A stretch of DNA of 64,000 bases from positions 1 to 64,000 of the forward strand of contig CAVXKA010000003.1 in NCBI GenBank assembly GCA_963762255.1. The letters run 5' to 3'. Under the pieces are notes generated by a model. It made no database searches and was not told where the DNA came from. It saw only the letters and a list, made by a program, of their open reading frames with translations. This document shows positions 47,667 through 56,267 of this stretch, piece after piece; the stretch's first letter is position 1, and the number at the start of each line of letters is the position of its first letter. This DNA comes from Candidatus Eiseniibacteriota bacterium (GTDB lineage: Bacteria > Eisenbacteria > RBG-16-71-46 > JABDJR01). The translations under genes and the position numbers were made by a program.

Positions 47667-49397
47667 TCAGGAAGCCACCAGCGTCACCCGAGCCACTTCC
47701 TCCAGGGAAGTCACGCCCAGGCGAGCCTTCGCCACCGCGTCTTTGCGGAGGGTGGACATCCCCTCCTCCACCGCACTGGCTCGCACGGTGGCGGAGTCCG
47801 CGTTCTGCAGCATGAGGCGGCGGATGCCGTCGCTCATCCGCATCAGCTCGAACACTCCGATTCGCCCCGCATACCCCACGTTCAGACAGCGCCGGCATCC
47901 CGACGCGGCGAAGAAGGGGCCCCTCTCCTCCCCGGGCTCCAGCACCCGGTTCATCAGGACCTCGTCGGGCCGCGTCTCGTGCCGGCAGTGCGGGCACAGG
48001 ATGCGCACGAGCCGCTGCGCGAGCACCGCGCGCACGCTGCTGGCCACAAGGTAGGGCTCCAGCCCCATATCGCGGAGCCGCATCAACGTCCCCGCCGCTT
48101 CCGTGGTGTGGAGCGTGGAGAAGACCAGGTGACCGGTCAGAGCGGCCCGGATGGCGATGTCCGCGGTCTCCTGGTCTCGGATCTCACCGACCATGATGAC
48201 ATCGGGATCCTGACGGAGAATGGAGCGCAGGCCGGTGGCGAAGGTCACCCCGGCGCGCGGATTCACTTGGATCTGCCCGATGCTGGGGAGCTTGTACTCG
48301 ACCGGATCCTCCACGGTTACGATGTTCAGTTCCGGGCTGTTGATCTCGTTGAGCGAGCCGTAAAGGGTCGTCGACTTGCCGCTTCCGGTGGGGCCGGTCA
48401 CGAGAAGGATGCCCCCGGGGAGGCGAATCAGGTCCCGCCAGATCCGAAGTTCGTCGGGGCCGATCCCCGTGTTGTCCAGGCCCACGAGCACGCTCCGCGA
48501 GTCCAGGATGCGCATGACCACCTTTTCCCCGCGAACGGTGGGCAGCGTGCTCACCCGCAGGTCGATTCGATGGCCGCGAAAGGTGACCGTGAACTGCCCG
48601 TCCTGTGGAGCGCGCTTCTCGGAAATGTCCATGCGGGAAAGGATCTTCACGCGCGTGACGATGCCGGAGTGCAAGGGCTTCGGAGGGTGCGCCTTGTCCT
48701 GCAAGACGCCGTCGATGCGAAACCGGACGCGAACGTGGTCATCCTCCGGTTCTATGTGGATGTCGCTCGCCCGATCCTTCAGGGCTTGATTGAGGAGGAG
48801 GTTCACGATCTTGACCACGGGGGCGTCCTCGGAGCGCGAGGCGACCTCATCCATGATCATGAGGTCCTCGTCCGTCTCGTCGAGGTCGAGATCGGTGTCG
48901 CTCTCCCGGCGTCGTGCGGCGTCCACGAAGGCCGCCTGCATCGTGGCGTTCACCGAGTAGAAGCGCGCGATGGCGTCGGTGATCTCTCCGGCGAGACCCA
49001 CCGCCGGTTTCACTTCCAAGCCGGTCAGGAACCGCACGCGGTCGATGGCCACCACGTCGAGCGGGTCCACCATGGCCACCGTCAGCCAGGAACCCCGGCG
49101 ATAGACGGGCATGATCTGTAGCTCGCGGGCGAGCGATTCCGGCACGTCATGCGTGACGTCCGAGTCGATCGACTCCTCGTCGAGTCGAATCGCCTCCACT
49201 CCGAGCACCGCGCTCCAGTGTTCGAGCACGATTTCGCGCGCCAGCCCCGCCTGGTGGACCAGGTAGTCCCCGGGTGGGTCTGCGGACTGCGCCATTCCCC
49301 TGGATAGCACATCCATTTTCTCGCGGGTCAGGTGCTTGTACTTGACGAGGCGCTCCAGGAGTTCATACCCCTGGGTATGCAAGCTGGTTTGAGGCAT
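47667..49397 (-). CDS. GspE/PilB assembly ATPase
   Basis: ASDIHIEP, GPTGSGKSTT, EDPVEY, LRQDPDVIMVGEIRD, TGHLVFSTLHT, CxxC...CxxC. Confidence 0.95.
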   Translation of the reverse strand: MPQTSLHTQGYELLERLVKYKHLTREKMDVLSRGMAQSADPPGDYLVHQAGLAREIVLEHWSAVLGVEAIRLDEESIDSDVTHDVPESLARELQIMPVYRRGSWLTVAMVDPLDVVAIDRVRFLTGLEVKPAVGLAGEITDAIARFYSVNATMQAAFVDAARRRESDTDLDLDETDEDLMIMDEVASRSEDAPVVKIVNLLLNQALKDRASDIHIEPEDDHVRVRFRIDGVLQDKAHPPKPLHSGIVTRVKILSRMDISEKRAPQDGQFTVTFRGHRIDLRVSTLPTVRGEKVVMRILDSRSVLVGLDNTGIGPDELRIWRDLIRLPGGILLVTGPTGSGKSTTLYGSLNEINSPELNIVTVEDPVEYKLPSIGQIQVNPRAGVTFATGLRSILRQDPDVIMVGEIRDQETADIAIRAALTGHLVFSTLHTTEAAGTLMRLRDMGLEPYLVASSVRAVLAQRLVRILCPHCRHETRPDEVLMNRVLEPGEERGPFFAASGCRRCLNVGYAGRIGVFELMRMSDGIRRLMLQNADSATVRASAVEEGMSTLRKDAVAKARLGVTSLEEVARVTLVAS

Positions 49398-49538
49398 GGA
49401 CAACCCTCCAGATCCGGTATCGGCCTTCCAAGTACGGTCCTGAACCGCGGCCCGGCAAGCGAGGTCGGAGGCGGCCCGGGGTCGGCGGGCGAAGATTCAC
49501 CTTTGCCTCCCGCGCGCGCTTGGCTACGGTGTTGGCCC

Positions 49539-51524
49539 ATGAACCCGGCACCCAGTTCGACCCAGGCCCCCGATGCTCACTCCCCCTCGGCGAGCCGCGC
49601 CACGGCGGCGATCTGTGTGGCCGCGGCGCTTCTCATGGCATTCTTCGCAGCGGTCCCCCTGGAACGGTTTCCACACAGCGGCGACGAGTACGCCTACCAG
49701 TACCAGGCGCGCACGTTTCTCGCCGGGCGGGCGGTGAACCCCCCCGCTCCCGACCCGGCGGCGTACGAGCAGGTCCACATCATCAGCACGCCCGAGCGCA
49801 TGTACTCCAAGTACCCGCCCGGGTGGCCCGCGGTGCTGGCTGCCGGCGAGGCGGCTCGAGTTGGGTTCCTGGTCAACCCGCTCCTCGCCGCGCTCACGCT
49901 GTGGGTCGCGTTTCGCCTCGCAAGACGAGTCGCCGGCGACACCGTCGCGCTGGCGTTTCTCCTACTTCTCGCGACCAACGGGTTCTACCTGCTCAACGGC
50001 GCCACGTTCTTCTCGCACCCGATGGTCGGATTGGCGCTCGTCCTCGGACTGGATGCACTCTACCGATACAGCGCAGCGCCCCGCTCTCGGTATGCGCTCG
50101 CCGCCGGTGCGTGCCTCGGCGCGATCCTCCTCACGAGGCCTCAGGATGCGTTGCTCGTCGGCGCGGGGTTCGCCGTCGCCGGGATCGCGCTCCTGCGGCA
50201 GGCGCCCCACTCGTCACGACTCGCCCATGGTCTATCGGCGCTGATCGGTCCGGCGCTGGCCCTCGGGGCGTTCCTTCTCTACAACCGCGCAACGACCGGC
50301 GACGCCCTGCTCTTCGGCCACATCGCCCGCAGCGCGAGCGACCGGCCGACATGGAACCCGCTTGGATCGGTGCTGTCCACGGTGAACCGGCTGCAGGAAT
50401 ACGTGGTCGTCGCTTCGGTGGGATTGGCGGCGTTTCTGCTCCGGCCTCGATCTTCCGGCTCGGCCGCCGAGCGCCCGCCGGCACGCATGCTGGCCCTCGC
50501 AGCGCTCATCGTGTTCCTCTACTGGTTGGGCTACTCGACCTACACGCAGCCCGACGGCCCGCCGCGCTTCGGCCCGCGCTACCTCTATCCCGCGCACATC
50601 CTCACGTTCTTCCTGGCTGCCACCGCACTGGTGCGGTCGCTGCGACCGGGCGCGCTGCGTCCTCTATTGCTTCTCGTCGTCGCGGCGCAGCTTGTGCAGA
50701 CCGGGGTCGTGATCGACTCCGCGCACAAGACCATCCATGCCGCCACAGGGCCGGAGCGCGCGGCGAACGTGCTCGCCAAGGCGATCGCTCCCAATCGTGC
50801 GATGGTCCTCGTCGAGGGCCCGGCGGGATCCGTGCCGACGTACGATCTCATTCGCAACGGCATCGACTACACGCACCCGGTCGTATTCGTGGGGCGAGTG
50901 CCCCAGGCGGGGGCGATGGATCGCATCCCGTATCTCTGGGACGGAGCCGGCGGGCTCCCGATGCTGCGCTCCCTCGACCCGCACGCCGACGTGCAGGCCG
51001 TGGCCCTCACCCAAACCGGGGCCACCGTCCTGCGGCCCGAACCGCAGCAGGGGTGGATCGTGACCCGCGGCTCCAACCGGTGCTCGAAGTACTTCTGGGA
51101 GTTCCCCGGATCGAGGCCCACGGATTGGTCGACGCTGGGACCCTGCGGCGAGGGCATCGTGCAGGCGGGACATCCGCCCGCGCCGGGAGAAGCCTGGGAA
51201 GATACGGGGCGCAAGTGGTTCTTCGCGGTCTTTCGGACATTCCTGGATCTGGACGAACCCGGGTCCTACGCCTTCCATCTCCGCGTCGCCGGCGCGATCC
51301 GGCTCCGCCTGGATGGCCGGACGCTTCTGGAGACGCAGGCCGCAATCGGCGATTGGGCCCCGGAGATGCGTGTGGACCTCGATCCCGGCATCCACCGGGT
51401 TGAACTCTCGTACTTCACCACGCGACGGCCGGCCCTCCTCGAGTGGTCCGCGCGCGGGCCGAGCGGCGAAGAGCTGGAATCCTGGCGCTACTCCGCGCTC
51501 CGAGCGATGGCCGGACCCCGCTGA
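49539..51524 (+). CDS. ArnT/PMT-like (GT-C) membrane glycosyltransferase with a C-terminal PA14-like domain
   Basis: SGDEYAY, SKYPPGWP, multiple TMs, FGPRY; C-terminal PGSYAF...RLRLDG...PGIHRVELSY. Confidence 0.72.
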   Translation: MNPAPSSTQAPDAHSPSASRATAAICVAAALLMAFFAAVPLERFPHSGDEYAYQYQARTFLAGRAVNPPAPDPAAYEQVHIISTPERMYSKYPPGWPAVLAAGEAARVGFLVNPLLAALTLWVAFRLARRVAGDTVALAFLLLLATNGFYLLNGATFFSHPMVGLALVLGLDALYRYSAAPRSRYALAAGACLGAILLTRPQDALLVGAGFAVAGIALLRQAPHSSRLAHGLSALIGPALALGAFLLYNRATTGDALLFGHIARSASDRPTWNPLGSVLSTVNRLQEYVVVASVGLAAFLLRPRSSGSAAERPPARMLALAALIVFLYWLGYSTYTQPDGPPRFGPRYLYPAHILTFFLAATALVRSLRPGALRPLLLLVVAAQLVQTGVVIDSAHKTIHAATGPERAANVLAKAIAPNRAMVLVEGPAGSVPTYDLIRNGIDYTHPVVFVGRVPQAGAMDRIPYLWDGAGGLPMLRSLDPHADVQAVALTQTGATVLRPEPQQGWIVTRGSNRCSKYFWEFPGSRPTDWSTLGPCGEGIVQAGHPPAPGEAWEDTGRKWFFAVFRTFLDLDEPGSYAFHLRVAGAIRLRLDGRTLLETQAAIGDWAPEMRVDLDPGIHRVELSYFTTRRPALLEWSARGPSGEELESWRYSALRAMAGPR

Positions 51525-51604
51525 CGGGAGGCCTGGAACCGGGTACAATGCCGCCCGCGGTCTCGAAGCGAGACGATCCTCCACGCCTGCACACGGGAAC
51601 GATC

Positions 51605-52255
51605 ATGAACCACTTCGAAAACCTGTTCATCGGCATCGCCGGCATGATCGGCGCCGGCAAGTCCACCCTCGCCACCTCCCTCGGCAAGCACCTCGGCATC
51701 GACGTGTACTACGAGCCGGTGGAGAACAACGAGTACCTGGAGGACTTCTACCGCGACACCAAGCGGTATTCCTTCGCCACCCAGATCTACCTCCTCAACA
51801 AGCGATTCCAGCAGCACCAGGAAATCATCTGGCGCAAGCGTCCCGCGGTGCAGGACCGCACGATCTACGAGGACTCGGTGTTCGCTAAGATGCTGGCCGA
51901 GACCGGGCTCATGGAGGAGAGGGACTACCGCACCTACGTCGAGCTGTTCCAGAACATGAGCAACTTCATGCGCAAGCCCAACGTGATCGTCTACCTGGAC
52001 GTGTCGCCGGCGCGGTCGATGGAGCGCATCAAGGCGCGGTCGCGTGGCGTGGAGAGCGGCATCACGCTCGACTACCTTCACGCTCTCCACCAGGGATACG
52101 AGGACTTCATCGCCGAGATCTCGCGCGTCATCCCGGTAATCCGCGTGGACTACGACCGGTTCGCCACCGCGGAGGAGATGACCGAGGTGATCACCCGGGA
52201 CTACCTCAAGCAGAGCTTTCTGCGCGAGGCGACGCGCTTCGATCCGGTTCGGTGA
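51605..52255 (+). CDS. Deoxynucleoside kinase
   Basis: GMIGAGKST, QIYLLNKRF, DRTIYED, RIKARSRGVE; CTGACG-N17-TACAAT upstream. Confidence 0.92.
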   Translation: MNHFENLFIGIAGMIGAGKSTLATSLGKHLGIDVYYEPVENNEYLEDFYRDTKRYSFATQIYLLNKRFQQHQEIIWRKRPAVQDRTIYEDSVFAKMLAETGLMEERDYRTYVELFQNMSNFMRKPNVIVYLDVSPARSMERIKARSRGVESGITLDYLHALHQGYEDFIAEISRVIPVIRVDYDRFATAEEMTEVITRDYLKQSFLREATRFDPVR

Positions 52256-52296
52256 CGGTGTATACTCCTGTCATCTCCCATGCGACGAGGTGGTGT

Positions 52297-52851
52297 ATGC
52301 GCTTGCTTGCTCTGGTGGTCGTGGTGGTGGTCCTTGCGGTCGTGGCGGCGCCGTGTCAGGCAGCCGGGTTCCGGATCGAGGCCGAGTCGTTCATCGATGC
52401 CAACGACCTCGGCGGCACTCAGATTGTTGTTGTTGGCTGCACCTACGCATCGGGCGGGGTGGCGGTCGGGGGGCTCGACGGCCCGGGCGAGTGGATCGAG
52501 TTCCGCCTCGAACTCTCCTCCACGACCACCTTCGTCGACTCCCTCCGCAGTGCAGGTCTCGTCGGCGAGGTCCGCCACTTCAGCGTCCTCTTCCTGAGCG
52601 GAGGCGATCCCGTCGGAGCCCCCGGCGACACCGTCACAAGCGGGCCGGGTTTAGGATTCAGTTGAAGGTACTCCAATTACGACTGGGTCCAGTCGTCCCG
52701 AGTCCACACCCTCCCCGCCGGCTCCTACTCCGTCCGCGTCACCTGCCTCGACACGAGCTCCTCGCGCGTTGATTGCCTGGACTTCTCAACCAATCCGGTG
52801 GCCGTCGAGCCCGCGACCTGGGGAAGGATCAAGACCTTCTACCTGCCCTAG
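52297..52851 (+). CDS. Secreted CBM6/35-like protein with an in-frame TGA at codon 123 (candidate selenoprotein) and C-terminal TWGxIK motif
   Basis: GAGGTGG RBS, signal peptide, RIEAESF, GEWIEF; after TGA (52663-52665) the frame reads RYSNYDWVQSSRVHTLPAGSYSVRVTCLDTSSSRVDCLDFSTNPVAVEPATWGRIKTFYLP to TAG. Confidence 0.8.
52667..52705 (+). promoter_or_regulatory. Bacterial SECIS-like hairpin
   Basis: Upper stem ACGACTG/CAGTCGT (52679-85/52690-96) closing a GGTC loop 21-24 nt after the UGA; lower stem GG(T)ACTC/GAGTCC. Confidence 0.7.
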
Positions 52852-52867
52852 CGCTCGCGCGCGGGCG

Positions 52868-53332
52868 CTACCAGCGATGGTAGGCGGGATGGCCGGGCTG
52901 CACGGAGACGAAGGTTCCCCGGCAGGTGGCGCACACGTCTCCGTCCGCCTCCACGCTCGCTTCCACCTCGGCGCGGTTCCCATCCACGGAAACAACGCGG
53001 GCCCGCAGCGTGAGCATGCGGTCGGAAGGTGTCGGCTTGCGGAGCTTGATCGCGTACTGCGCCGTCACCGTGCTCGGCAGATGGTCGAGGCCCTGCGTCT
53101 CCATGAGGCGTAGCGCCGCCGCCCAGTTGGAGTGGCAGTCCATAAGGGCGCCGATGATCCCGCCGTTGAGCGATCCAGGGAAAGCCTGATGATGCGGTTC
53201 CGGTTTCCACGTCGCCAGCAACTCCTCCCCGTGGAGGAAACTTCGAATGCGCAGCCCTTTCGGGTTGGCCGGGCCGCATCCGAAGCAGATGTTGTCGGGG
53301 GCGTAACGCTCCTGCACGCTTTGTTCGGTCAT
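52868..53332 (-). CDS. PaaI-like hotdog thioesterase
   Basis: CFGCGPANPKGL, HQAFPGSLNGGIIGALMD. Confidence 0.88.
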   Translation of the reverse strand: MTEQSVQERYAPDNICFGCGPANPKGLRIRSFLHGEELLATWKPEPHHQAFPGSLNGGIIGALMDCHSNWAAALRLMETQGLDHLPSTVTAQYAIKLRKPTPSDRMLTLRARVVSVDGNRAEVEASVEADGDVCATCRGTFVSVQPGHPAYHRW

Positions 53333-53386: not shown

Positions 53387-56267
53387 TCACGGAGCGGCCT
53401 CGGGGGCGCCGGGGAGCAGGAAAGAGAGGGTGGCCCCTCCGTCCTCAACGCCCTCGGCCCAGACCCTCCCCCCATGGCGGCGAACGATGCGTTGCACCAG
53501 GGCGAGGCCGATTCCGGTCCCTTCGAACTCCTCTTGAGAGTGCAGACGCTGGAAGACGCCGAAGAGTTTCTCGGCGTGGCGCATGTCGAATCCGATTCCG
53601 TTATCGCGCACGGTGTAGACCGTCCCATCTTTCTCCGCCCGAGCCCCGATCTCGATCACGCGCCGTTCCCGGGGTGCGCTGAACTTGAGTGCGTTGTCGA
53701 TGAGGTTGACCCAGACCTGTCGGATGAGGGTCGCGTCCGCCCACGCCTCGGGTATCTCTCCGAGCCGCAGTTCCACCGAGGGTTGCTCCGCCGGCGGGCA
53801 CAGCTCATGGAAGACCGAGTGGGCCAGCGTGCGCATGTCCACACGGTGCCGGTCGATCTCGTGTCGCCCAACGCGGGAAAGATCAAGCAGGCCGTCGATG
53901 AGACGCTGCATGCCGGCAGCGCTCTCGCTCACGATGCGGAGCAGCCGGCGGCCTTCCTCATCGAGCGCACCCTGGTGATCCTCGATGAGGATGCGGCTGA
54001 AGCCGTCGATGGCCCGCAGCGGGGCCCGCAGGTCATGGGAGACGGAGTAGCTGAAGGCCTCCAGCTCGTGGATGGAGGCGGCGAGTTCGGCCGTGCGCTC
54101 TTCCACGCGCCGCTCCAACTCCTGATTGAGGCGGCGGATTTCATTCTCCGCCCGCTTGCGGCGCCCGATATCGATGACGTAGGCCACCGAGCGCTCCCGC
54201 TCCGCCTCCAGGAGCGCAAACCCCAGTTGAACCCAGATCCTGCTTCCGTCTTTGCGTATGCACTCCTTCTCATAGGGGGCGCACACGCCCCGCAGCTTCG
54301 CCTGGGCGATCGCCTCATCGTCGAGCGCCAGATACTCCGGCGGGGTGATGTCCACCCACCGTATCCGCCCCTCCTCGAGGTCGGTGCGGGAATAGCCGAT
54401 GATGCGCAAGAACTCGTCGTTGGCCTCGAAGACCGAACCATGGATGTCGCCGAAAAGCATCCCAAGGGCCGAGGCACGGAAGAAGAGGTCCAGCTTCTCC
54501 TGGGCCTCATGGGCACGGCGCTCGGCGCGGTCACGCTCGGTGACATCCACCTGGAGCGTGAGGATACCGGTCACCTCGGCGCCCCGCTCCCGGAGGGGAG
54601 CCACGGTGAGAAGCACGTGGACGTCCCGCCCATCCTTGTGACGCCGAAGCTGCGGCAAGTTGATGAGAACCTCCCCACCCCATGCTCGCTCGAGCAGCTT
54701 TCGGAACGTTCCATCGTCCGCCTCCCGGACAACAGGGCAGGACTGTCCCACAACTTCCCCGGCTTCCCACCCGAACACGCGCGTCGCCGCGGGGTTCCAG
54801 AACACGACTCGGCCATCGCGGTTCAGGGTCACGATAGGGATCGGGGAAGACTCCACCATGGCCCCAAGCGCATCCGTCGTCGAGCGCAACGACTCCTCCG
54901 TCTGCCTGCGCAGGGTGATATCGCGCACCACGGAAACGATGTATTGCTCGCGGCCCTCCGCGACCAGGCGGGAACTCACTTCCACGGGGAAGTTCTCTCC
55001 GTCCCCCCGTCGGTGGGACGTCTCGAAGAGCGTCCAGCCGTGCTCGATGACGGTCTGCATCTGAATCCGACAAGCCGGTTGCTCGACTTCCGGGCAGAAA
55101 TCCTGCACCAAATTTCTCGTCATCAATCGTTCGGCGGGTTCGCCGTACAGCTCTTCCGCCCGCAGGTTGAGACGGAGGATGGTGCCCTCCAGGTCCGTGA
55201 CGAGGATGGCATCGTGCGTCTGCTCGAGTAGCCGGGTCAGCCGGGCTTCCCGCGCCCCCAGGGAAGCCGCCCGCAGGCGGCGCCGGCGCGCGCTGAGGCT
55301 CGCGGTCGTCATCGAGAAGACCATCGCCACCGCCGTCCAGGCCAGGACCGCGAGCCAGGCGACTCGAATCGGGGAGCGCAGCACTTCTTCCCGGTCGACC
55401 TTGATTACGACTTGCCATGGGACGAAAGGAAGGCGAGAGACGGCAACGAGGAGCGGCGCGCCACCGTCGTCCCTCGCCTCCGATGTGCCCTCGGGAAACG
55501 CGGCGGTGGCGGAGCCTTCCCCGGGCATCGCGCACCGCCCGGCGCGGTGTGAGCCCTGCGGAAGTGCCCCCGGGCGATAGCGAGAAATACTGCACGCTGT
55601 CCGATAGAATTCGGGCGAAGAGGAACTCCTCGCTGCGGAACGACCATGGCCGCCGGTTGAGAAACGGCGTCAGCCACCTCCGCACGTCCATCTCCGCCAG
55701 CACCCATCCCCACGGCGGTCTGCCGGTCGATGTCGACTCGGGGACGGCGAACAGGAAGACGGTCTCGCCAGATGCGTCGGCGTGAAGCCCGCTGAATGGA
55801 GCGTTCGCGTCCATGGCGCTCCGTAGGTCCTCTCGGCACCCGGGTTCCAGTTCGGCGGAAGCAGGGCTCGCGAAGCGGGGTTCTCCGGCAGAGCCGATGA
55901 GGAAGATCCGGGAAAGCCCTTGGAGGCCCCTCAGGCGGTCCAGCACCACCGCAAGGTGTTCCTCGCTCCCCTCGCCATGCAGCGGGGGCGGGGGCGCCCC
56001 CGCGAGGATCGCCTTCACGGAGGGGAAGGACGCGATAGTGGCCACGTCGCCCAGCGCATCCTCGGTGATTAGATCCACCGACTCGGAAACCGCGGCCGCA
56101 TGTTCGAGGAGCTCCTGGCGCCAGTGGGCGAGCGCGTCGGCGCGAGCGTGAGGCACGTACCATGCTGCCCCGAGCAGCGCGACCGAAGCGGGTAGGCCCA
56201 GGGCCAGCAGGAACTCCCGCAGTCCCGAGCGGCCAAGAAAAATCCATGCTCGGGCGGTTCGTTTCAT
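53387..56267 (-). CDS. Membrane sensor histidine kinase (Cache-like domain, 3 PAS); frameshift ~55530
   Basis: Two TMs flank a periplasmic domain; three PAS/PAC repeats; FSYSVSHDLRAPLR, NLIDNALKF, DNGIGF, GTGIGL. Confidence 0.85.

Follow-up and report, generated by a model that had tools for sequence, protein, structure and literature searches.

Bacterial selenoprotein genes with an intragenic selenocysteine (Sec) insertion sequence (SECIS), exemplified by E. coli fdhF and by the Zhang and Gladyshev model as given in PMC13188914, carry an in-frame UGA and, within the coding sequence, a hairpin with a 6- to 7-bp stem and a small, GG-initiated loop about 20 nt from the UGA. Cys-containing homologues of such genes exist, and selA, selB, selC, and selD are found in the genome. 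The same features are present in and around a gene at positions 52297 to 52851 of the DNA analyzed here, a 64,000-nt window comprising bases 1 to 64000 of contig 3 in the three-contig, 4.14-Mb genome (G000) of a Candidatus Eisenbacteria bacterium. We regard it as very likely that this gene represents a genuine and new selenoprotein family. The account that best explains the observations as a whole, and that we consider likely to be correct, is that of one gene for a 184-residue exported selenoprotein whose family is uncatalogued.

The exported selenoproteins that have been catalogued (DsbA-like and DsbG-like proteins, a thiol:disulfide interchange protein, and the FCYXU-type TonB-dependent receptor; PMC13188914) are likewise extracytoplasmic, carry Sec in place of a redox or ligand Cys, and were predicted by the same logic of Sec/Cys alternation combined with a SECIS. 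They differ from the present protein in fold and sequence family, and their NCBIfam models did not match it at an E value of ≤10. The read-through protein had no match at this threshold in either NCBIfam release 20 or Pfam. Supplementary listings aside, the 119 selenoprotein families in Table 1 of a 2026 review (PMC13188914) include no entry that is comparable or resembles a carbohydrate-binding module (CBM), and a term match in the accessible text of the deep-Sep and BSepDB papers (BSepDB supplementary listings aside) gave no mention of CBMs or Eisenbacteria. Literature searches on selenoproteins with a CBM or a secreted jelly roll and on Eisenbacteria with selenium or selenocysteine also turned up no description of the family. 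Decoding follows the usual bacterial mechanism, but the family itself is new, as suspected in an initial annotation of the window, in which no described selenoprotein family was recognized. It adds to known selenoproteins an exported family built on a lectin-type beta-sandwich, a fold that is not thioredoxin-like, and thereby broadens the range of contexts with known or predicted Sec use.

The in-frame UGA and its cysteine counterparts

The reading frame contains a single in-frame TGA followed by 61 sense codons before the terminal TAG, and the 184-residue extent given in the initial annotation holds on the sequence. When 206 genomes of the phylum were searched in all six frames with a family profile, 28 places matched, two of them through the C-terminal tag only, leaving 26 true homologues in 21 genomes. 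Identity to the protein encoded in the window ranged from 27 to 58%. Exactly one TGA was present in 23 of the 26 homologous loci, in the same column and always after P-G-x-G-x-[G/S/T], and two further loci (G063 and G154) were stop-free with TGC (Cys) in this column. The remaining locus (G006) encodes a shortened protein in which the Sec half is missing and the tag is kept. Conservation of the protein continues over the full length of the alignment downstream of the TGA, where there is no start codon. The initial annotation had called for TGA or Cys in the homologues at this column and for conservation beyond it, and both are found. Because 23 of the 26 loci carry TGA in the same column and two carry Cys, the gene is not a pseudogene. 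The G006 relative (L056, G006:C2:284249-284527 plus flanks) encodes 121 residues, in which a signal peptide and a half-domain extending to about residue 96 are directly followed by the tag. Neither the last strands nor the Sec loop is present, and this short form may be a deletion derivative.

A search of cluster representatives (1.84 billion) yielded 467 matches at an E value of ≤0.001; the best 150 of these were examined together with 5 close database relatives from another search. Among these 155 relatives, 112 terminate exactly at the Sec column, 20 span it (16 with Cys and 4 ordinary multidomain CBM6 proteins), and 23 are fragments. All five close database relatives (122 to 125 residues) stop at the Sec column. 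Truncation by gene callers, which had been predicted in the initial annotation, is therefore systematic: at least 112 public clusters are cut at the Sec codon, and half of the domain is missing from them. The Cys at the Sec column is invariant in a 17-row alignment of Cys forms, and every homologue without the UGA has Cys there (18/18, comprising 2 genome loci and 16 database relatives). In a metagenome scan with an N-terminal query that ended before the TGA and the hairpin, TGA was present in all five loci, two of which were new sequences. A pattern search of genome contigs with X at the Sec column demanded the motif Y-D-W-V-Q-S and was uninformative on forms that lack it. One contig titled Terriglobales (L068) is the same as G150:C266, which GTDB places in the same phylum; this is a labeling discrepancy and not evidence of the family outside Eisenbacteria.

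In a tree that contained 20 Sec forms and 18 Cys forms, the two states are interleaved. The Sec column and the residues encoded by the hairpin were not used to build it, and it includes neither G005 and G006 nor the two G072 copies, which are partial, nor any of the truncated representatives. Parsimony requires eight changes of state, and the well-supported branches force at least four.

Gene callers annotate the UGA as a true stop, as in the five close relatives, and on that reading the locus would be a nonsense pseudogene, a gene for a 122-residue protein with noncoding or separately translated sequence behind it, or an assembly error. The presence of the codon in the same column in 23 loci at 27 to 58% identity, the coding conservation past it without a start codon, and the position downstream of it of the last three strands of the predicted fold make this reading barely credible. 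The independent sequence sample bears on the same point. A 419-nt contig from an RNA (metatranscriptome) library, derived from a relative, covers positions 52372 to 52787, including the TGA (22 differences, ∼95% identity), and none of the 17 listed differences falls in the TGA codon. This contig argues against an assembly error and is a weak hint of transcription in the relative. Among public sequencing runs, none contained more than 0.15 of the sampled words, and the matches were otherwise short contigs from relatives.

The genome encodes the machinery that Sec insertion requires. A tRNA-Sec was detected by Rfam (67.5 bits) and by ARAGORN (SeC, anticodon tca), and SelA, SelB, and SelD are also encoded, so that selA, selB, selC, and selD, for which a search had been proposed in the initial annotation, are all present. 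The selD gene (G000:C2:841489-842421) has an in-frame TGA of its own, in the context G-A-G-U-A-C-K, which makes SelD another selenoprotein of this genome. The hairpin downstream of that TGA differs in sequence, with a GC-rich stem and an AAG-type loop in the minimum free energy (MFE) fold. SelA was found in 189 of the 206 phylum genomes, a tally that includes the unpublished genome G054; thus, Sec use is a trait of the whole phylum. Among genomes with a UGA form, SelA was found in 17 of 19, and the two without a match are 75% and 54% complete.

The hairpin downstream of the UGA

A hairpin with a 7-bp upper stem starts 13 nt after the TGA, and its apical loop, GGUC, occupies +21 to +24 (a spacing of 20 nt). 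A lower stem lies beneath it, and RNAfold returned the same structure (−15.2 kcal/mol) as had been described in the initial annotation. We take the loop of the fdhF element to be GGUC as well. Published constraints for bacterial SECIS (bSECIS) elements are a loop of 3 to 9 nt, a stem of 4 to 16 bp, a G in the first two loop positions, a distance of 16 to 37 nt between UGA and loop, and an MFE of ≤−7.5 kcal/mol (PMC13188914), and the hairpin described here lies within each of them, with its 4-nt GGUC loop, 7-bp stem, 20-nt spacing, and MFE of −15.2 kcal/mol. It also fits a published description in which the stem has 6 to 8 bp and the loop contains a conserved G located some 20 nt after the UGA (PMC4605307). 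An Rfam search of positions 52500 to 52900 at an E value of ≤10 gave three chance-level matches only. The codons around the UGA, which the initial annotation had singled out as AT rich, are so in this genome (10/27 nt, or 37% G+C, against 66.7% genome-wide); AT-richness is not seen at this position in homologues and is peculiar to this genome rather than to the family.

The weight of the hairpin rests on its conservation across homologues. Of 24 distinct Sec-form DNAs, 23 retain the six inner pairs of the stem. The exception, from G010, instead forms another GC-rich hairpin, which is similarly spaced and has a G at or near the start of the loop. Standard pairing was found in 93.9% of the alignment cells, and sliding the 3′ partner by 1 to 3 columns lowered this value to 16 to 49%. 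The loop varies among GGUC, GGCU, GGUU, and GUCU, and the stem is invariant. At pair 18-33, 20 sequences have C-G and 3 have G-C; in these 3, a Tyr-to-Trp replacement (TAC to TGG) is offset by a synonymous change from TCG to TCC.

The residues encoded by the hairpin show the same constraint from the protein side. Genes with Y-D-W-V-Q-S invariably use TAC-GAC-...-CAG-TCG (20/20), although TCG accounts for 29% of the Ser codons in the family. In Cys forms, the motif has decayed in all 18 examined, the closest remnants being Y-D-C-V-Q-S and Y-D-W-V-S-S. It is this codon choice and the contrast between Sec and Cys forms, rather than folding energy, that indicate selection on the RNA beyond the protein level. 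The motif is constant where Sec is used and unconstrained in the Cys forms, and it thus shows a SECIS constraining protein sequence. In the decoding step that we propose, SelB with Sec-tRNA(Sec) would bind the hairpin, and Sec would be inserted at the UGA.

A nonstandard reading of the UGA need not involve Sec. A near-cognate tRNA (Trp, Cys, or Arg) or a lineage-specific recoding would also hold the downstream frame under selection. Such decoding is nevertheless extremely unlikely, given that Cys occupies the column in every homologue without the UGA, that a hairpin following bSECIS rules is conserved in UGA forms only, and that the full Sec machinery is present. In addition, a second TGA is the terminator in 14 of 22 complete Sec-form genes; therefore, UGA is still a stop in these organisms, and the internal one alone is recoded.

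Several points weigh against the assignment of Sec. The call is strong, but what it draws on is sequence comparison. The folding energy of the hairpin is unexceptional relative to dinucleotide shuffles (z = −0.97, with 36/200 shuffles folding equally well) and to synonymous-codon shuffles (mean z = −0.78, P ≤ 0.05 in 2/23). Y-D-W-V-Q-S written with common codons already forms the hairpin, and energy was not counted as evidence for it. The covariation consists of one pair in three sequences from one taxonomic family and, since all three share that family, may reflect a single evolutionary event. SelA is nearly universal in the phylum, and its presence is hence not discriminating. The RNA-library contig comes from a relative and is possibly derived from DNA, and 5 of its 22 differences are not listed.

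Predicted fold, proposed cysteine pairing, and a candidate thioredoxin-porin partner

An AlphaFold2 model computed from nine sequences is a single all-beta domain with a mean predicted local distance difference test (pLDDT) score of 78.8. The strands at residues 129 to 164, encoded 3′ of the UGA, have mean pLDDT values of 77 to 95 and lie within the same domain; the last three strands of the single predicted beta-sandwich are encoded downstream of the UGA. Foldseek searches of the PDB returned 123 matches at an E value of ≤0.001, including CBM35 (2w1w_B; E = 1.1e-6) and CBM6 (1gmm; E = 3e-6), with a Foldseek probability of 1.00 and target-normalized template modeling scores of 0.74 to 0.80 between the predicted model and 2w1w, 1gmm, and 2cdp. 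The predicted model has the beta-sandwich jelly-roll that characterizes CBM6 and CBM35, and the modeling thus agrees with the earlier proposal that the downstream codons supply the last strands of such a domain. Like CmCBM6-2 (1uxz), CtCBM6 (1gmm), and CtCBM35 (2w1w), the protein is predicted to form a jelly-roll of the same size and keeps two strand motifs, I-E-A-E at the N terminus and G-E/D-W. As with CBM6/CBM35, the module is also found in terminal position, preceded by Ig/fn3 domains and followed by type IX secretion system (T9SS)-type sorting domains. In contrast to this structural likeness, the sequence match to CBM6/CBM35 is not significant, with no Pfam match at an E value of ≤10 and an E value of 0.14 to CBM6 in a PDB profile search.

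The position of Sec in the fold was approached by a two-step alignment, in which the CBM6 domain of a distant match (P0140) bridges the family to CmCBM6-2. Sugar binding in cleft A involves Trp92, Tyr34, and Asn120 (CtCBM6 numbering), and Glu20 of the Cellvibrio module is a ligand contact (PMC10284105). In this alignment, which is approximate in the loops concerned, the Sec column falls on Trp92 of CmCBM6-2, and Cys48 aligns with residue 22, which lies between Glu20 and Thr23 in the first of the cleft-A loops. A conserved R-x-D of the family falls on the W-N-x-N-W motif that holds Asn121. On this approximate mapping, the cleft-A set (Tyr33/34, Trp92, and Asn120/121; PMC10284105) is not retained, with Sec at the Trp92 position and Cys in place of a cleft-loop residue.

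Cys48, named as a possible partner of Sec123 in the initial annotation, gains indirect support from the distribution of Cys residues. Its column is Cys in 20 of 22 Sec-form genome loci, and the two exceptions (G015 and G084) have Cys two residues after Sec (U-x-C), an arrangement found in none of the 21 other Sec-form loci. Because both loci without Cys48 carry U-x-C, Cys48 is the likely partner of Sec123. Among the 155 database relatives examined, 99 of the 112 truncated ones have Cys48, and the 13 that lack it resemble G015 and G084. Two other Cys columns, 79 and 139, covary perfectly (15 with both, 8 with neither, and 0 mixed), which is the pattern expected of an extracytoplasmic disulfide. 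Together with the distribution of Cys48 and U-x-C, it lends support to a redox site outside the cytoplasm.

Longer relatives have Ig, fn3, or Big domains upstream and FlgD_ig/Por_Secre_tail downstream, and no catalytic domain is fused to them. Taken with the Ig/fn3 stalks, the tag (in some relatives, the T9SS-type domain) suggests that the protein is displayed on the cell surface or within the envelope. The arrangement of a module after Ig/fn3 stalks, as in surface lectins, the CBM6/35-like fold, and a subthreshold CBM_35 match in one relative (24.5 bits versus a cutoff of 28) are what would be expected if the protein were a genuine selenoprotein that still binds carbohydrate, with a purely structural Sec-Cys bond that shapes the binding loop. 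We consider this very unlikely, since the cleft-A aromatics are replaced by Cys and Sec in the two-step alignment (compare PMC10284105) and a structural bond leaves unexplained both a costly Sec in at least 112 clusters and a dedicated thioredoxin partner.

That partner emerged from the genomic neighborhoods of homologues. In 4 of the 10 neighborhoods first examined, a divergent gene lies directly upstream and encodes a protein of 650 to 750 residues with an AhpC-TSA/Redoxin domain. The protein has a signal peptide, an invariant W-x-R-G-C-P-x-C-T, and a long C-terminal region with a conserved G-G-x-S-G-C-G-x-C-G loop. It was found in 18 of the 206 phylum genomes (E ≤ 1e-30), that is, in 15 of the 21 genomes with a family member and 3 of the 185 others; these genomes are interrelated, and the counts are not independent. 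The three partner genomes without a family member (G058, G026, and G078, the last two as weak matches) gave tag matches only. The partner is adjacent and divergent in nine genomes from five taxonomic families (G015, G022, G039, G061, G062, G063, G069, G085, and G154), and in G154 it adjoins a Cys form.

An AlphaFold2 model of the partner (pLDDT of 74.1) has a thioredoxin fold and, after it, some 20 long strands in antiparallel arrangement, for which the best Foldseek matches are the 18-strand outer-membrane barrels MOMP, OprD/Occ, and AlgE (E = 8e-11 to 1e-8). Pfam recognized the thioredoxin part only (AhpC-TSA/Redoxin, in the four neighbor copies scanned), and NCBIfam gave a subthreshold DsbE match (E = 1.6e-4) for the G069 copy and no match for the copy in this genome. 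The architecture of a thioredoxin-porin fusion was not found in Pfam or NCBIfam. Loci with this type of fusion are G000:C3:671390-673399, L074, L075, L079, L080, and L088-L093. As in the TlpA/DsbE/ResA oxidoreductases, the partner combines an AhpC-TSA/Redoxin-fold domain and W-x-R-G-C-P-x-C with a signal peptide, which suggests reduction of a specific envelope client. Unlike them, it joins its thioredoxin domain to a porin-like barrel, which has about 18 strands and a C-x-x-C loop of its own, and its presumed client is the selenoprotein. A complex prediction for the G063 Cys form and the neighboring thioredoxin-barrel protein scored 0.00; it speaks neither for nor against binding and was not used.

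In the best-supported mechanism, to which we give an about even chance, Sec123 would pair with Cys48 for redox chemistry, and the thioredoxin-porin partner would serve this pair. After export through the secretory translocon, the protein would fold into the CBM6/CBM35-like beta-sandwich, with Sec123 taking the place of the ligand-stacking Trp of cleft A and Cys48 approaching from an adjoining cleft loop. The two residues would constitute a redox-active selenol/thiol pair, passing through a selenylsulfide; in the subtype that lacks Cys48, the partner residue would be supplied locally as U-x-C. The likely reductant would be the periplasmic, TlpA/DsbE-like CPxC thioredoxin domain of the coinherited protein, fused to the 18-strand porin-like outer-membrane barrel. 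A fuller version, which we put forward tentatively, is a previously undescribed two-gene envelope redox module in which electrons would pass from the periplasmic CPxC domain, possibly via the C-x-x-C loop of the barrel, across or at the outer membrane to a surface selenoenzyme on a lectin scaffold, whose Sec/Cys pair in the former sugar cleft would act on an extracellular or glycan-associated substrate. In either form, the partnership can be put to the test and offers a way into a possible redox pathway of the outer envelope in a phylum without cultured members.

The main rival of the redox pair is metal binding. In this reading, the protein is again a genuine selenoprotein, but the same Sec and Cys would act, in what was once the sugar cleft, as ligands for soft metals or metalloids (Cu, Hg, Zn, Cd, As, or Se species), and the protein would serve for metal binding or scavenging in the envelope. 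Two chalcogen ligands in a surface cleft, as placed by the two-step alignment, would suit this role, U-x-C is equally possible as a metal-binding motif, and the C-x-x-C loop is conserved in the barrel of the partner. Several recent bacterial selenoprotein families are also related to metals or organometals (PMC13188914). We nevertheless hold metal binding to be unlikely: the conserved TlpA/DsbE-like CPxC partner speaks for disulfide exchange, the 10 neighborhoods examined share no recurring gene for metal transport or metal-dependent regulation, and the conserved candidate ligands number only two.

The redox reading has its own counterweights. The mapping onto cleft A depends on a weak, two-step alignment through a 12.5-bit domain and is approximate in precisely these loops, and the pLDDT of the Sec loop is only moderate (blocks of 70 to 79). 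Most members, differing in this from known bacterial selenoproteins, have no UxxC/CxxU motif, which is found in none of the 21 Sec-form loci other than the U-x-C pair. In the genome studied here, the partner orthologue is about 620 kb away on the same contig (G000:C3:671390-673399), and the partner was not found in 6 of the 21 genomes with a family member (G005, G006, G007, G010, G084, and G150).

Gene features, surroundings, and the C-terminal tag

The features of the gene and its immediate neighbors are listed in Table 1. All homologues have a hydrophobic, signal-peptide-like N terminus, ending in a lipobox-like ...C in two of them. Homologous sequence upstream of the gene was found in the same-genus genome only. 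A Pfam scan of ten neighborhoods in other genomes showed no recurrence of the families adjacent to the gene, namely, the deoxynucleoside kinase, the 154-residue open reading frame (ORF), and the histidine kinase. On the 5′ side of the deoxynucleoside kinase gene, a 730-residue ORF (49332-51524, + strand) has many hydrophobic segments and no Pfam family at an E value of ≤1e-5; its start overlaps other ORFs and is therefore uncertain.

Table 1. Positions in the window of the selenoprotein gene, its parts, and its nearest neighbors
Feature	Position	Strand	Basis or remark
Complete selenoprotein coding sequence	52297..52851	+	ATG at 52297, 184 codons plus TAG at 52849-52851, Sec is codon 123; homologues align full-length across the TGA
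Shine-Dalgarno-like GAGGTGG, 5′ of ATG	52287..52293	+	Sequence; same motif precedes the ATG in the same-genus homologue
Putative N-terminal signal peptide, approximately residues 1-23	52297..52365	+	Hydrophobic core, A-x-A-like CQA|AG; predicted helix at residues 3-16
Predicted CBM6/CBM35-like beta-sandwich domain, residues 24-165	52366..52791	+	AlphaFold2 model and Foldseek
Cys48 (TGC), candidate partner of Sec123	52438..52440	+	Column conservation
UGA read as Sec123	52663..52665	+	TGA/Cys column conserved across homologues
Bacterial SECIS element (lower stem, upper stem, and apical loop)	52666..52705	+	RNAfold, comparison of homologues, bSECIS constraints
SECIS lower stem	52667-52668 and 52670-52673 with 52700-52705	+	RNAfold
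SECIS upper stem, ACGACTG with CAGTCGT	52679-52685 with 52690-52696	+	RNAfold
SECIS apical loop, GGTC	52686-52689	+	RNAfold
C-terminal tag ...PVAVEPATWGRIKTFYLP	52792..52848	+	Motif count in genome; lineage specific, common to many exported proteins
Deoxynucleoside kinase (PF01712)	51443-52255	+	Immediate neighbor
Convergent 154-residue ORF	52868-53332	-	Immediate neighbor; no Pfam match
PAS-domain histidine kinase	53387-55528	-	Immediate neighbor

The C-terminal tag of the protein matched no Pfam or NCBIfam model. In the form P-V-P-V-x-x-x-[S/T]-W-G-x-[I/V/L]-K-x-x-[Y/F], followed by 0 to 5 residues before the stop, it closes 53 six-frame ORFs in the genome, 46 of which are at least 120 residues long; most are 200 to 470 residues with signal-peptide-like N termini. 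Examples are C1:68809-69789, C2:869009-869746, and C3:650468-651196 of G000. The tag looks like a lineage-specific sorting or secretion signal, without a transmembrane helix, and in some homologues it is replaced by a FlgD_ig/Por_Secre_tail domain. It is also frequent in other Eisenbacteria, with 13 to 26 matches each in G026, G078, and G058.

Some copies of the family carry Cys-rich modules of about 35 to 40 residues (G-A-C-C-x-x-D-G-S-C ... C-D-P-N-P-C), which had no Pfam match. Five such modules stand in tandem before the second G039 copy (L059, G039:C93), which also has a lipobox, and a single module is inserted before the tag in the G022 copy (L042).

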